This document shows positions 3,010 through 33,888 of a stretch of DNA of 64,000 nucleotides, piece by piece. How positions within the stretch are numbered: the first letter of the stretch is position 1; every line of letters begins with the position of its first letter. The position numbers and the translations under genes are program-made. The notes under the pieces are model-generated. The model ran no database searches. It was not told where the DNA came from and was given only the letters and a program-made list of their open reading frames with translations. The stretch comes from Nitrosopumilus sp. (lineage in GTDB: Archaea; Thermoproteota; Nitrososphaeria; Nitrososphaerales; Nitrosopumilaceae): NCBI GenBank assembly GCA_965218695.1, contig OZ244651.1, positions 2,232,337 to 2,296,336 of the forward strand. The letters are read 5' to 3'.

Positions 3010-4347
3010 GTGACACAAAAGAGCGTGAGATTCTTTCCCAGAAAGGACAGCGCAGTCTCCAAGGATAGTGACGAGTACATTGTAAAAGAAGAGCTTGAGG
3101 CACGCTCAGAGGCACTGCAGGCCGAGGTAGACAAGAGTCAAAGTGAACTGGACAGGATTCAAGAGGAACGCGAGGAGAGGCGTGCTGAACTGCAGGACAT
3201 CACTCAAAAGGTTCAGGTAGTAAAGGAAGAGTATAACACGTCAGTCGGCACCCTGATGTCAATCAAGAAGGACCTGAATCAAAGCAGGATGGATCTTGAT
3301 TCCATACACAGGGAACACAAGGAGGTCTCAACTAGGATCAGGAATTCTGAGGTCAGTGTGGAGATTGGCATGAGTCTTTCCAAGGCAAGAGATTTGCTCC
3401 TCAATACAAGGAATGAGATTAGGAAGGCAACGCAGGAGCGCGAGAGGGTAAAGGAGCAGATGGAGCAGGAGAAGACTGTCCTGTCAGGAATCAAGGAGGA
3501 GACCAGGAAGGCAGCAGAGTGCGATGATGCAGGGGAGCAGAAGATTCTATCAGGAATCAAGGAGGAGACCAGGAAGGCAACGCAGGAGCGCGAGAGGATA
3601 AAGGAGCAGATGGAGCAGGAGAAGACTGTCCTGGCAGGAATCAAGGAGGAGACCAGGAAGGCAGCAGAGCGCGATGATGCAGGGGAGCAGAAGATTCTAT
3701 CAGGAATCAAGGAGGAGACCAGGAAGGCAACGCAGGAGCGCGAGAGGGTAAAGGAGCAGATGGAGCAGGAGAAGACTGTCCTGTCAGGAATCAAGGAGGA
3801 GACCAGGAAGGCAGCAGAGCGCGATGATGCAGGGGAGCAGAAGATTCTATCAGGAATCAAGGAGGAGACCAGGAAGGCAACGCAGGAGCGCGAGAGGGTA
3901 AAGGAGCAGATGGAGCAGGAACGCAAAGCCCTGTCCACCGTAAAAAGGGAGCAGATGAAGGCAAAGGAGGAGCTGGAGGAGACCAACGCCATGCTGTATA
4001 ACGCAAAGGAGGACATGGGTAAAAAGACAAAAGTCCAAGAGACAGGTCCCCTTACCATCAAGGAAAAGGAGTTTATTCATGGGAACAGTACTGATCAGAG
4101 AGGTTCTGCAGGGATAATTGAGGCGGCAAGTGCAGTAGTCAGCTCCCTGAAATCAAAACTCAAGGCAACACAGGACAAGATTGATTCGGTCCAGGCTCTT
4201 TTGGAGGAAGAAAGGGAGAAGCATAAAAAGACCAAGCAGAAACTGGAGTCATTCAGGAAGGGCGCAGTCAAGTCAGAACAGAAGTCAGAACAGAAGTCAG
4301 AACAGAAGTCAGAACAGAAGTCAGAACACGGCAAGGATGCATCCTAG
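3010..4347 (+). CDS. coiled-coil repeat protein, hypothetical
   Basis: 445-aa ORF with a GTG start and an extremely E/K/R/Q-rich sequence. It contains 3.3 near-identical 50-aa repeats (KATQERERVKEQMEQEKTVLSGIKEETRKAAERDDAGEQKILSGIKEETR) and a C-terminal (SEQK)4. Confidence 0.7.
   Translation: MTQKSVRFFPRKDSAVSKDSDEYIVKEELEARSEALQAEVDKSQSELDRIQEEREERRAELQDITQKVQVVKEEYNTSVGTLMSIKKDLNQSRMDLDSIHREHKEVSTRIRNSEVSVEIGMSLSKARDLLLNTRNEIRKATQERERVKEQMEQEKTVLSGIKEETRKAAECDDAGEQKILSGIKEETRKATQERERIKEQMEQEKTVLAGIKEETRKAAERDDAGEQKILSGIKEETRKATQERERVKEQMEQEKTVLSGIKEETRKAAERDDAGEQKILSGIKEETRKATQERERVKEQMEQERKALSTVKREQMKAKEELEETNAMLYNAKEDMGKKTKVQETGPLTIKEKEFIHGNSTDQRGSAGIIEAASAVVSSLKSKLKATQDKIDSVQALLEEEREKHKKTKQKLESFRKGAVKSEQKSEQKSEQKSEQKSEHGKDAS
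3421..3920. repeat. 150-bp tandem repeat, 3.3 copies, near-perfect
   Basis: Units start at 3421, 3571, 3721 and 3871, each beginning AGGAAGGCAACGCAGGAGCG. Only a few substitutions differ between units, and the array is in frame within the CDS. Confidence 0.95.
4273..4329. repeat. 12-bp tandem repeat TCAGAACAGAAG, 4.75 copies
   Basis: Perfect units at 4273, 4285, 4297 and 4309, plus a partial unit. It encodes (SEQK)4-SEH at the C-terminus of the coiled-coil protein. Confidence 0.95.
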
Positions 4348-4919: not shown

Positions 4920-4968
4920 TTGTGTGTGATGTTGCAGGCTCACTATTGAATCTAATTGAGAGGAACAG

Positions 4969-5060
4969 GTACATACTCAGGTCCCCCTCAAACTCAGGCG
5001 TGAATATACGTAAAACAGTACATGTTTACGCCTAGACAATACCGGGACCTGAGTATGTAC
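4969..5060. mobile_element. MITE copy 1 (92 bp, 17-bp TIR GTACATACTCAGGTCCC)
   Basis: Perfect 17-bp terminal inverted repeats, flanked by the 8-bp direct repeat AGGAACAG (4961-4968 and 5061-5068). It matches the copy at 27722-27813 at 91 of 92 positions. Confidence 0.9.
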
Positions 5061-5266
5061 AGGAACAGCCAGGTTGGCAGTGTTTTGTATTGCAGTATGG
5101 CTTGTGACGCCGGATGGTAGGGAGTATCAAGTGTTTGTCGCAGGACGGATGCCCCAGTCAACACGGGCTTGGTTTTCCATGGCGAGTTGCGGCAGGATGA
5201 CGACGGTTCCATATTGGAGAGCCATGCATTCAGACAGTTATAATTAGGATGATTGTGCTCTTGGCA

Positions 5267-25149: not shown

Positions 25150-26913
25150 GTAATTGTTTCGCTTTTTGAAGTAACCGGATGGCCTAGCGGACATCCATGG
25201 TACCGGGAATGAATCTAATAATTTCGTACTCGGGATGACAAAGTTAGACCATCGCGATCCAAGTACGAGTGGGTGCCAGTCCCTTCGATCTTTGGAAATG
25301 AAGGAACCAGCACGCCGAACATGCTTGGAGGCGGAGGAATTTAAGGCAATGCACGAACACTCCTTGCCGCAAATCCCGCTGGATGCCGGGGCGTGCATGG
25401 AACCAGGGTGCAGGTGCTGCCTGCACTGGGCAAAAATGTTCGGCGACGTGCTAGGCCCAACCCGCAAGATCCTGGAGGCAGCCTGCGAAATTGCAGGCGA
25501 GTCGGGCGCAGACTGGAAGGAGGCCGGGCGCCTGCAGGCGCTCGTCTCGTCCCTCACAGAGGACAACAAGAGGTACGCCAAGACAAACAGGGATCTCAAC
25601 GCCAAGGCAAACGGGATCAGCGTCCCCGCGCCCAAGAAGAAGGCCGGTCAGGGAAAGAAGGCCGCCGGCAGGCCCAAGGGGCAGAAACCCACCGTCAACT
25701 GCAGGCCAAAGCGCGTGGACCGCGTCGAGGAGATCGACTGCAAGGAGTGCCCCGACTGCGGCGGCGGGCTCTCTGGGAGGGTGACTGCCGAGTACGATCG
25801 CATCGTGACTGTCATGCGCGTCCTGTTGGAGAACGTCAGGTACGTCATCAAGCGGCGCTGGTGCCGCGTGTGCAAAAGACAGGTCTCCGGGAGGGTTCCC
25901 GGCGCGGCAAAACACGCGCGCCGTTCATCAAACTTTGACGCGGTCATGACGTCCCTGAACATGAATGGCATGTCGCATGCCAGGACCGCAGAATTTGGCG
26001 GCGACGCGTTGGGGCACGTAACCTCGCGCTCGTCTGCCTACCGCGGCAAGATCAGGCAGGCCGGGCGCATGGCGCCGGAACGCGATTCGGTAAGGGAGCG
26101 CGTGCTGGAGGCGCCACACCTGAACGTAGACGAGTTTCACTGGCCGCTGGGCGGCAAGCGCGGCTACGGGATAGTGGCTCTGGCAAAAAATCACTGCCTC
26201 GTGGAGGTGGCCGACTCGCGGGACATCAAGACGCTCCGCCAGACGCTCCCGGGCTACCGGGGAACCATAACGCAGGACTCGTATCCCGGGTGGCTCCACG
26301 TGGGATCGTGCCGCCAGATGTGCGTGTGGCACCAGGAACGCCTGGTGCAAAAGGACGTCCTGACCAACCCCGGGGGTGACGTTCCGGCGTTTCTGGACAG
26401 GCTGTCGGCAATCCACATGAAGATTTACCGCGCCTCCAGGATCAAGGACCGGCACCCAAGGATCGTCGCTGCCCGCTGCATAGACGCGGAGCTGCGCGAG
26501 CTGATGAACGAACCGTTTGCAGGCGACGGGGACGGCACCATCGCCCGGCACAAGAAGAGGTACCCGCGGGAGGGATATTTCATGACCACCTGCCTGCACG
26601 TGGACGGCATCGAGCCTGACAACAACGCAGTCGAGAGGGCCAACCGGAGGTTCGTGGCCGTAAGGAGCGACGGGGGCGGGAACCGCTCCAGGAAGGGCAT
26701 GGATGCCAACTCGATCCTGTTCACGCTGCTGGCAACTGACAGGATCAACAAGGACAGCTTCTTTGATCACCTGGTCCGCTCGTCTTCCGGGGACGGATGA
26801 GGCGCCGTCCGACGGCACGTGCAGTGCGTCACGGGGAAAAAGAGTCCACGGTAAGGGGAAGGCTGCACCCGCTCCGCTGCCAAGCAGCCCACTTCAAAAA
26901 GCGAAACTATTAC
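25150..26913 (+). mobile_element. IS66-family insertion sequence, single-ORF type (1764 bp)
   Basis: TIR GTAATTGTTTCGCTTTTTGAAGT (25150-25172) matches the reverse complement of 26891-26913 at 22 of 23. The 8-bp TSD is TACTGGAA (25142-25149 and 26914-26921). Confidence 0.9.
25235..26800 (+). CDS. IS66-family transposase (TnpC-like)
   Basis: 521-aa ORF with the zinc-ribbon CPDCGG...CRVCK and the motifs NVDEFHW, TQDSYPGW and DNNAVERANRRFV. Confidence 0.88.
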   Translation: MTKLDHRDPSTSGCQSLRSLEMKEPARRTCLEAEEFKAMHEHSLPQIPLDAGACMEPGCRCCLHWAKMFGDVLGPTRKILEAACEIAGESGADWKEAGRLQALVSSLTEDNKRYAKTNRDLNAKANGISVPAPKKKAGQGKKAAGRPKGQKPTVNCRPKRVDRVEEIDCKECPDCGGGLSGRVTAEYDRIVTVMRVLLENVRYVIKRRWCRVCKRQVSGRVPGAAKHARRSSNFDAVMTSLNMNGMSHARTAEFGGDALGHVTSRSSAYRGKIRQAGRMAPERDSVRERVLEAPHLNVDEFHWPLGGKRGYGIVALAKNHCLVEVADSRDIKTLRQTLPGYRGTITQDSYPGWLHVGSCRQMCVWHQERLVQKDVLTNPGGDVPAFLDRLSAIHMKIYRASRIKDRHPRIVAARCIDAELRELMNEPFAGDGDGTIARHKKRYPREGYFMTTCLHVDGIEPDNNAVERANRRFVAVRSDGGGNRSRKGMDANSILFTLLATDRINKDSFFDHLVRSSSGDG

Positions 26914-27666: not shown

Positions 27667-27718
27667 AATCTGGAGAAGATCTATATTCATGCCTATGTAC
27701 CGATAACTTCACAGAACC
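27667..27718 (-). repeat. right 52-bp terminal inverted repeat
   Basis: AATCTGGAGAAGATCTATATTCATGCCTATGTACCGATAACTTCACAGAACC. Confidence 0.9.
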
Positions 27719-27721
27719 CCG

Positions 27722-27813
27722 GTACATACTCAGGTTCCCCTCAAACTCAGGCGTGAATATACGTAAAACAGTACATGTTTACGCCTAGACAATACCGGGA
27801 CCTGAGTATGTAC
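27722..27813. mobile_element. MITE copy 2 (92 bp)
   Basis: Differs from copy 1 by one substitution. The 8-bp TSD is GAACCCCG (27714-27721 and 27814-27821). That TSD is made of the last 5 nt of the 52-bp TIR plus the first 3 nt of its TSD. Confidence 0.9.
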
Positions 27814-27831
27814 GAACCCCGGCTCCGCAGG

Positions 27832-27863
27832 TTTATAATGCAGTGTACCGTACTATACGGTAC
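27832..27863 (+). promoter_or_regulatory. TATA box plus perfect palindromic operator candidate
   Basis: TTTATAA at 27832-27838. GTACCGTA-cta-TACGGTAC at 27845-27863 abuts the ATG at 27864. Confidence 0.5.
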
Positions 27864-32289: not shown

Positions 32290-33888
32290 GTAACTGTGTA
32301 GTTTTTTGATCAAATGCTGAATTCCATGTCTCCAAGAAACTATGTATTTTTTTGACATAGGACCAGACCCTCGCGCAGGACCGTGCCAAGATCATCTCCC
32401 CTTGCCTTGCATGTCTGCTTGATGCTCATCAGCGTGGCAATGGCGTCTGCGCCCTTCTTTGACCTGCTCCCGTTGCTGTTCTTGCGCAGGATGACGCACG
32501 GCCTGATGGCCCGCTCTGCCCGGTTGTTGTGGTATTCGACATCGTCTGTCTCCAGAAACGCAAACAGGTGATCCCTTTCCCGCACCAGCCTCTTGCGCAT
32601 CCTGTTGCAGTGCTTGCAGTCGCGGTTCTTCTCGAGCCTGCCTATCATGGACGCGATGCGACGATCCAGCCTCTTCTTTGCGGCAAGCGCGTCTGCCCCT
32701 CCCGGAACGGCGCCGTCGACGTGCGAGTCCCGCAGTATCGCGCGCAGCGTCCTTGCGTGCCGACGGTAGTCCTGGCCGGGATTCTTGTATCTCAGGGTGG
32801 CCTTGACGTCCCGGACGTAATGCAGGTGGCACTTTTGGTGCATGGCTCCTATGACGTTCCACGCTCCCCACGAGTCAGACGTCACGCATCCCGGGTAGTC
32901 CTTGCCGAGCATCTTTTTTGGAACCTTCGAGTTCCTGCGGCGGTGCACCTCGTAGATTACGGCGTACCTTGTTACCACCGCCCACAGCCAGTAGTTCGTG
33001 CCGTCGACGCGCCAGACGGACTCGTCCCCGTTTATCGCAGGCGAGTTTCTTACCTCCTCCTTGATCTTCTCGTACAGCGGCCCGAGCTCCCGGGCCATCC
33101 TGCACACCATACGGTTTATCGCAGATTCCGTGATTCTTGCCGAGTACATCATCATGACAATATTGCATATTCTGAGGTCTGACATGCCGTGCAGCCTGAG
33201 GATGACCATCATTATCATAAAGTTGATCCCGTACCTGGAGTTTGGCAGTGCCAGCGGAGTCCTGCCGGACACGGTCTTCTTGCAGTTCCTGCAACGTCTT
33301 CTCTTTACTGTCACCTTGATGTGCTTTAGTTCCGTCTTGGCAGCCTCCCTTACCACCTTTGTGTACGTGGATACGCACTCGGAGAGGTCGGAGCTGCCGC
33401 AGTTGTCGCACGTGTGGGGATCTGCCGTCTCCTCTGCGTCTATTCTTTCAGGACGCGCAAGGCCCGTGCGCCTGTGGACGCTTGGCTTGCCCTTGGCCTT
33501 TGTGCGGCGTCTGGCACTGCCCGTCTTTTTGTCAGGTTTTGCGCCGATGCTCCTTGCAACGGCAGCCGATATGGTGCCCCTTGCTTCCTGCAACTCTGCC
33601 GTGAGGTCCTGGATCTGCCTGAGGGCGGCAGCGTAAAGATCAGTGAGTTTGGCTATCTGCTGGTCCTTTTTGGCCAGCTGCCCTGCCATCATCTCCACTT
33701 TTTCCTCCAGTTCTGCAATCCTTGACTCGGAATTATCATCAGACATAATGCAAACCGTGGGAACTGATGATCTAAAAATTGGAATGGAGAGAAAAACTCG
33801 ATCAAGTGATTAAAAATAGTTTCAAAAAAACTACACAGACGTTTGTAGGCATGGAATTCAACATTTGATCAAAAAACTACACAGTTAC
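32290..33888 (-). mobile_element. IS66-family insertion sequence, single-ORF type (1599 bp)
   Basis: 39-bp TIR GTAACTGTGTAGTTTTTTGATCAAATGCTGAATTCCATG matches the reverse complement of 33850-33888 at 38 of 39. The 8-bp TSD is CTTCGTTT (32282-32289 and 33889-33896). Confidence 0.92.
32340..33746 (-). CDS. IS66-family transposase (TnpC-like)
   Basis: 468-aa ORF with an N-terminal coiled coil, CDNCGS...CRNCKK, NGDESVWRV, VTSDSWGAW and HNNRAERAIRPCV. Confidence 0.88.
   Translation of the reverse strand: MSDDNSESRIAELEEKVEMMAGQLAKKDQQIAKLTDLYAAALRQIQDLTAELQEARGTISAAVARSIGAKPDKKTGSARRRTKAKGKPSVHRRTGLARPERIDAEETADPHTCDNCGSSDLSECVSTYTKVVREAAKTELKHIKVTVKRRRCRNCKKTVSGRTPLALPNSRYGINFMIMMVILRLHGMSDLRICNIVMMMYSARITESAINRMVCRMARELGPLYEKIKEEVRNSPAINGDESVWRVDGTNYWLWAVVTRYAVIYEVHRRRNSKVPKKMLGKDYPGCVTSDSWGAWNVIGAMHQKCHLHYVRDVKATLRYKNPGQDYRRHARTLRAILRDSHVDGAVPGGADALAAKKRLDRRIASMIGRLEKNRDCKHCNRMRKRLVRERDHLFAFLETDDVEYHNNRAERAIRPCVILRKNSNGSRSKKGADAIATLMSIKQTCKARGDDLGTVLREGLVLCQKNT

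Follow-up and report, generated by a model that had tools for sequence, protein, structure and literature searches.

The window analysed here is a stretch of 64,000 nucleotides (C1:2232337-2296336) from a genome of 2.63 Mb in nine contigs (52.8% G+C). This genome encodes an archaeal AmoA and therefore belongs to an ammonia-oxidising archaeon. Two copies of a 92 bp element without an open reading frame, termed MITE-A, reside in the window (Table 1), and the frames listed across copy 1 are spurious read-through. Copy 1 lies in the space separating two small genes that diverge from each other, at a distance of 44 bp upstream from the start codon (ATG, 4917) of a small minus-strand ORF that is conserved in the closest sequenced relative, a species of the same genus (termed G002). 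Copy 2 is located 18 bp upstream of a TTTATAAT box (27832-27839) preceding a gene that is also conserved in G002.

Table 1. Elements and sequence features considered in this study. Positions refer to the window unless a contig (C1, C9) is named.
Feature	Position	Strand	Remarks
MITE-A copy 1	4969..5060	+	92 bp; identical to four other genomic copies
Target-site duplication, left of copy 1	4961..4968		AGGAACAG; sequence read directly
Target-site duplication, right of copy 1	5061..5068		AGGAACAG; sequence read directly
Left terminal inverted repeat, copy 1	4969..4985	+	GTACATACTCAGGTCCC, 17 bp; fits GTAYnnACTCAGGTCC
Right terminal inverted repeat, copy 1	5044..5060	-	GGGACCTGAGTATGTAC on + strand; perfect complement of 4969-4985
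Inner inverted repeat, left arm	4995..5000	+	AGGCGT; pairs with 5028-5033 in DNA and RNA folds
Inner inverted repeat, right arm	5028..5033	+	ACGCCT; within GCCTAGA-like subterminal motif
MITE-A copy 2	27722..27813	+	92 bp; one substitution, C to T at 27736, in left terminal inverted repeat
Target-site duplication, left of copy 2	27714..27721		GAACCCCG; read directly
Target-site duplication, right of copy 2	27814..27821		GAACCCCG; read directly
Window IS66-family element	25150-26913		ends GTAATTGTTTCGC (GTAATTG...), TSD TACTGGAA; not partner of 92 bp MITE
Window IS66-family element	32290-33888		ends GTAACTGTGTAGTT (GTAACTG...), TSD CTTCGTTT; not partner of 92 bp MITE
Type I IS	C1 1539637-1541310 and C1 1881726-1883399		99.8% identical to each other; intact, 505 aa
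Type II IS			three copies; disrupted
Type III IS	C1 132629-134249		intact, 500 aa
Type IV IS	C9 30222-31863		intact, 499 aa
MITE-B			82 bp; about five full copies
MITE-C			92 bp; two to four copies

An earlier note on this DNA, made from the letters of the window, had described the two copies as differing by a single base, and direct reading together with a repeat search bears this out. Specifically, the copies are 99% identical, and their sole difference is the substitution at element position 15. The same note ascribed perfect 17 bp terminal inverted repeats (TIRs) to each copy, which is correct for copy 1 (17 of 17 positions match) and has to be amended for copy 2 (16 of 17), where the substitution falls within a TIR. 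The inner inverted repeat that it pointed out is present, and its GCCTAGA-like subterminal motif is common to two further MITE families, B and C. Likewise, the 8 bp target-site duplications (TSDs) are perfect at both copies and differ between them, as had been reported.

The proposal that the whole element can fold into a single long hairpin holds for both nucleic acids. Folding of MITE-A yields -24 kcal/mol (z -8.2) as DNA and -47.6 kcal/mol (z -11.2) as RNA, and in each case none of 200 shuffled sequences performs as well. An Rfam search with MITE-A identified no family at the gathering score, the only hit, a chance hairpin match, reaching 19.5 bits where the threshold is 100 bits.

BLAST analysis of the whole genome with the 92-mer, a count that the earlier note had recommended, revealed 13 full-length copies of MITE-A, far more than chance would give, together with fragments and a single diverged relic. 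Five of the copies are identical to one another, and the nine unbroken copies carry a mean of 1.5 differences per 92 nt, which agrees with the recent mobilisation that had been proposed. Ten copies have perfect and mutually different 8 bp TSDs at first inspection, and this number rises to 12 of 13 when nested insertions are taken into account. A 93 bp variant, the eleventh copy with a TSD, has the duplication AAGATCGC. Another copy, at C1 27199-28587, is interrupted by an ISH3-family IS and has the outer TSD CATGTGCC. The copy at 2065218, seemingly devoid of a TSD, represents the right-hand portion of a copy that two nested ISs have divided (2061622..2065309); the left 11 nt of this copy are found at 2061622, and both outer flanks read ATTGTTCC.

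The only copy without a recognisable duplication (C1 937728-937819) begins with A rather than G, and has the flanks CTTTTGGT and TGGTGGAT. An IS66 copy is present on either side, and this place has probably undergone a rearrangement or another nested event. The flanks of MITE-A copies are unrelated to each other, and thus no longer repeat includes the 92-mer, and its ends are real ends. Two objections anticipated in the earlier note, that other genomic copies might lack TSDs and that the 92-mer might lie inside a longer conserved repeat, are therefore answered by these data. An exact-pattern scan of a genome-contig collection with the 41 nt core of the MITE produced no matches outside its own genome. 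Furthermore, a metagenome scan with the exact 17 nt TIR returned nine contigs with one match each and no inverted pair, as expected by chance for a collection of this size.

Comparison with G002, in which the flanks are 85-97% identical to those of the source genome, permits the insertions to be placed in time. The G002 orthologue of window copy 1 is uninterrupted and carries a single 8-mer, AGGGACAG, and no element; alignment of the two loci leaves a 100 bp gap that corresponds to the MITE and one TSD. The G002 site orthologous to copy 855255, which resides upstream of pyrG, is also uninterrupted. For window copy 2 the right flank alone is orthologous, and the left flank is another mobile element that is absent from G002. 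MITE-A is absent from 39 of 41 relatives, and G002 contains only one truncated copy (89% identity) and one diverged copy. The empty sites and this absence indicate expansion after the two species separated, so that, judged from these alignments, the spread of MITE-A postdates the split from the closest sequenced relative. Multiple copies, variable 8 bp TSDs and orthologous empty sites also confirm that true transposition, not segmental duplication, had been diagnosed correctly in the window.

A third orthologous position is occupied in both species. The orthologue of copy 1949304 (C1 1949304-1949395) in G002 (C1:583380-583800, locus L046) is occupied by a different, related 92 bp MITE that bears a nested element. 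Both MITEs start at the same flank base, and the TSDs are TATTAGCT here and AATGGCAC in G002. This position may be an insertion hot spot.

Occupation of that site in both species, from the same flank base onwards, raises the question of whether old insertions were later homogenised, in which case gene conversion or segmental duplication among old copies, and not recent transposition, would have made the copies nearly identical. We judge this to be very improbable. The TSDs at this very site differ between the species, and the clean emptiness of the two other orthologous sites in G002 largely refutes the idea. Furthermore, the flanks are unrelated at all copies, the perfect TSDs are each copy's own, and the older families B and C have not been homogenised (87-97% identity).

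The restored insertion sites of 11 MITE-A copies were examined for coding potential. In 10 of these, the longest spanning open frame is shorter than 150 aa; the eleventh copy falls in a long open frame but precedes the real start of pyrG by about 50 bp. Among random genome positions, 86% are within frames of at least 150 aa. In addition, an AT-rich octamer is present within 30 bp of the MITE sites more frequently than near random non-ORF positions (7.45 versus 6.55 of 8; resampling P about 0.0008). A by-eye scan of the MITE flanks for a TATA-like motif was not convincing. MITE-A insertions are found only in intergenic, AT-rich, promoter-proximal DNA, and this pattern may reflect either target choice or the survival of harmless insertions.

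The window contains no transposase gene with the MITE termini, and the local IS66 copies share only GTA with the MITE, both as originally stated. To search for a longer element with these ends, as had been suggested, the genome was scanned for the MITE-A TIR with mismatches allowed. Seven elements of 1.62-1.67 kb, bounded by GTAYnnACTCAGGTCC, were identified elsewhere in the genome, all outside the window. Their TSDs are 8 bp long, except for one of 9 bp. Each contains one ORF of about 500 aa encoding an IS66-family transposase (PF03050, 1.6e-25; NF033517, 1.9e-48), and thus the hint drawn from the 8 bp TSD, that an IS66-family enzyme is involved, leads to a clade of that family with matching ends. 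The MITE-A ends agree with the consensus at 14 of 14 specified positions on both sides, and 14-15 of 17 positions are identical between the partner IS ends and the MITE-A TIR.

The score with NF033517, the NCBI model for IS66, is 165.5 bits and so falls below the curated cut-off of 180 bits, which indicates that the partner clade is divergent. In a partner element of 1674 bp, the single ORF takes up 1518 nt and leaves no room for tnpA/tnpB accessory genes. The partner elements sort into four types, and four copies are intact (Table 1). Their transposase combines a CxxC...CxxC zinc finger with a DDE domain. Among 12 relatives, the zinc-finger cysteines and the residues D277-E278, D327-G328 and N428-N429-E432-R436 are invariant or nearly so, and the D-E, D-G, QRCWxH and NNxxExxIR signatures are kept to the same degree.

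The clade is rare among relatives and was found in 2 of 151 genomes of the order. Transposase relatives in other assemblies are 57-63% identical and often multicopy, and three of these were fetched: two have the end consensus at both ends, and the third (L038) at one end only. A search of the genome-contig collection with the 505 aa transposase gave no confirmed relative. As far as sampled, the partner clade is restricted to ammonia-oxidising archaea. A 1389 bp element with exact MITE ends (C1 27199-28587) was considered as an autonomous parent and rejected, since it is a MITE copy with a nested ISH3-family IS. The nested IS measures 1292 bp, has its own TIRs and a 5 bp TSD, and is one of 15 near-identical copies.

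MITE-A is accompanied by smaller-scale relatives. Families B and C have the same ends and 8 bp TSDs as MITE-A and are older and smaller, with 87-97% identity. A CTAGGC(A/G) motif, located about 10 nt inwards from one of the TIRs, is likewise common to them and MITE-A. A fourth related MITE family, again 92 bp in length, is present in G002.

An 8 bp TSD is not unique to IS66, and MITE-A is essentially one hairpin, so the question arises whether another transposase family that makes 8 bp TSDs (e.g. ISL3, IS1595 or hAT-like) or a REP/PATE hairpin might be involved, the likeness to IS66 being coincidental. This is scarcely credible, given that both ends agree fully with the consensus and that members of the transposase clade from several assemblies retain it. 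The resident ISH3-family IS carries CAGTCTTCCCAG at its ends and makes 5 bp TSDs, and the ends of the other IS66 types differ as well. No TSD is made by REP or IS200/IS605-derived elements, which are marked by subterminal hairpins and a linked Y1 transposase. The perfect TSDs and the DDE-type TIRs do not fit an IS200/IS605-derived PATE or a REP, and the resident ISH3 ends, CAGTCTTCCCAGAAGTA, and their 5 bp TSDs do not fit an ISH3-derived MITE.

The relationship to the partner clade has a defined extent. Beyond the 17 bp TIR, the interior of MITE-A does not significantly resemble the ends of any resident IS (z < 2, shuffles with the TIR fixed). Similarity that is limited to the TIR indicates that MITE-A did not arise recently by deletion within a resident IS, and comparison of the sequences relates it to the IS66 clade at the level of the ends only. 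Furthermore, no resident IS reproduces the MITE termini exactly, since the ISs have GC, GG or AC at positions 5-6, where the MITE has AT. The closest termini, GTACATCCTCAGATCC / GTACATCCTCAGGTCC, belong to a gene-less 893 bp relic on contig C4 that lacks a DDE domain.

These features are those expected if MITE-A derives from the IS66 clade and had a master of its own, with GTACAT... termini, that has since disappeared. The resident types I-IV would then be inactive on MITE-A, the C4 relic would be a possible remnant of the master, and the family would be the fossil of a recent burst. The original master may indeed have been lost and the MITE-A family may now be immobile, and overall we consider this scenario unlikely. 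Clade members that look functional vary freely at positions 5-6 (GC, GG, AG, AC), even between the two ends of one element, and these positions are therefore unlikely to decide recognition. Moreover, one MITE-A copy directly abuts an intact type I IS at a distance of exactly one TSD. The 93 bp variant, which has a hybrid end, possesses its own TSD, implying mobility after secondary events.

We consider it probable instead that MITE-A is a non-autonomous transposon moved in trans by the transposase of the ISBst12-like IS66 clade. According to this model, MITE-A would consist of two 17 bp transposase-binding ends and a short palindromic filler, without a gene. The DDE transposase of the clade, supplied in trans, would recognise GTAYnnACTCAGGTCC ends and bind both TIRs. 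The TIRs would then be joined to a target cut with an 8 bp stagger, and repair of the staggered cut would give rise to the 8 bp duplication. Among the resident elements, type I, of which two intact and nearly identical copies exist, is most likely to act as helper. Observed directly are the anatomy of MITE-A, its copy number, TSDs, empty sites and intergenic distribution, the termini that it shares with the clade, and the presence of intact transposase genes in which the catalytic signature is conserved. We infer, rather than observe, the mobilisation in trans, the transposase copy responsible and the mode of movement, be it cut-and-paste or copy-and-paste.

The immediate neighbourhood of MITE-A and type I IS noted above is one of several arrays with a shared duplication. 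At C1 1539629-1541418, the order is GCGGCGTC, type I IS, GCGGCGTC, MITE-A and GCGGCGTC. A second array (C1 2180853-2184266) consists of AGTAAAAT, MITE-B, T GGTAAAAT, type II IS, GGTAAAAT, a further type II IS and GGTAAAAT. In G002 (locus L028 542-2306), AGATCATG is followed by a type II IS, AGATCATG, an old MITE and AGAACAGG. Elements of the clade thus stand head-to-tail, and what separates them is exactly one duplication, the same as on the outer sides.

With about 27 elements in 2.6 Mb, such abutting arrays are not attributable to chance. They are seen only for this clade: two other IS66 types, with 16-34 ends surveyed, show no abutting ends, and none were found in 300 other genomes of the family. 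A dimer model could explain IS-IS junctions but cannot produce an IS-MITE junction. Insertion targeted to the 8 bp beside a resident cognate end would explain all arrays, in which case the ends of IS and MITE would be handled by the same enzyme.

A second type of encounter takes place within the MITE ends. A 2192 bp IS66-family element (ends GTACGCGTTCACCTCCCCCC) is inserted at exactly TIR positions 4-11, once in MITE-A and twice in MITE-B (C1 2061622-2065309, 274192-276471 and 2120775-2121990). In G002, a derivative of this element of about 177 bp is present at the same TIR position of a related MITE (L046 61-337), giving four independent cases of insertion at positions 4-11 of clade MITEs. 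The 2192 bp element also resides twice at one position of an ISH3 TIR (1074772, 2132329). GTA or CTA is found just outside the TSD in 7 of 9 insertions of the element or its derivative. By its sequence, the 93 bp MITE-A variant (GTAC+C+ATACTC...) looks like the tip of the 2192 bp IS fused to MITE-A from position 4 onwards. A fusion that has its own TSD would mean that mobilisation resumed after the hit.

We tentatively propose, as a possibility that we rate slightly short of even, that the clade targets new insertions to the 8 bp flanking resident cognate ends, that the 2192 bp element hits TIR positions 4-11, and that in both cases a transposase recognises resident ends as pseudo-substrates. 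The mechanism of IS66 transposition is poorly known. If true, this proposal would provide a first mechanistic handle on it, with synapsis involving a resident end, or intermediates of the junction type, as possible routes. Direct support for the action of the same enzyme on MITE and IS would also follow.

End-targeted insertion and IS tandem junctions are features of IS30, IS911/IS3 and IS21. The clade arrays, known here from sequence, resemble those junctions in their end-to-end arrangement and in a TSD-sized spacer that has the sequence of the outer TSDs. In contrast to those systems, the clade arrays include heterologous partners, namely an IS beside a MITE. We found no description of end-targeted insertion or tandem junctions for IS66 in the literature searched.

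The partner clade can be compared with known IS66 elements in a similar manner. The ISBst12 group of the IS66 family (ISfinder) has a single transposase gene and no tnpA/tnpB, and classical IS66 ends read GTAA.... The clade resembles the ISBst12 group, as that group is generally described, in its single ORF of about 500 aa with PF03050, zinc finger and DDE/CWxH/NNxxE signatures. Ends that begin with GTA and TSDs of 8-9 bp are further points of agreement. In contrast, its consensus GTAYnnACTCAGGTCC differs from the classical GTAA... ends and from both IS66 types in the window.

MITE-A is a MITE in every respect tested. Examples from prokaryotes include MITEPsy1 of Pseudomonas syringae (PMC3189936) and MITEAba12 (PMC6382973). 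Like these and the SM elements of Sulfolobus, MITE-A is short (<100-150 bp), non-coding and equipped with TIRs that match an IS of the same genome; it shares with them a TSD of the length typical of the IS family, multiple copies, a mostly intergenic location and the capacity to form a hairpin. Its partner, a single-ORF clade of the IS66 family, sets it apart from the known prokaryotic MITEs. No description of an IS66-derived MITE or of a MITE in Thaumarchaeota was found in the literature searched, an absence that is no proof of novelty.

MITEs as such are well known, and MITE-A alone would be a textbook case. Its value is that of a clean, datable example, for which a sister species offers empty sites and a helper can be named. 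The arrays with shared duplications, together with the position-specific hits on MITE ends, constitute natural evidence on IS66-type target choice. For annotation, the consensus GTAYnnACTCAGGTCC permits MITEs of at least four related families, together with the partner ISs, to be masked in these genomes.

For an archaeon of 2.6 Mb, the genome carries a very heavy load of mobile DNA. In whole-genome tblastn searches, IS66-family transposases of several types had more than 100 matches and ISH3-family transposases about 75. This richness provides a record of element-on-element interactions. In a 2026 survey, a Nitrosopumilus genome was the most IS-rich archaeon, with an IS content of 14.95% (PMC13343696), and that genome might be the same as, or similar to, the one analysed here. 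The source genome is also larger than the relatives listed in the genus (0.7-2.2 Mb).

The 1292 bp ISH3-family IS encodes a 396 aa transposase, makes 5 bp duplications, and has about 15 copies that are 99.7-100% identical (C1 27274-28565, 312599-313890 and 13 other places), which indicates a very recent burst. One copy is inside MITE-A and one is in the tip of a MITE-C, and a different ISH3-type IS is inside a MITE-B (1979570-1981125), so that ISH3-family hits on clade MITEs number three.

Finally, positions 3415-3920 of the window comprise three tandem 150 bp repeats that are 97-98% identical and unrelated to the MITE. The repeats are contained in an ORF of 445 aa (3010-4347) that is coiled-coil-like and ends in a KSEQ repeat tail.
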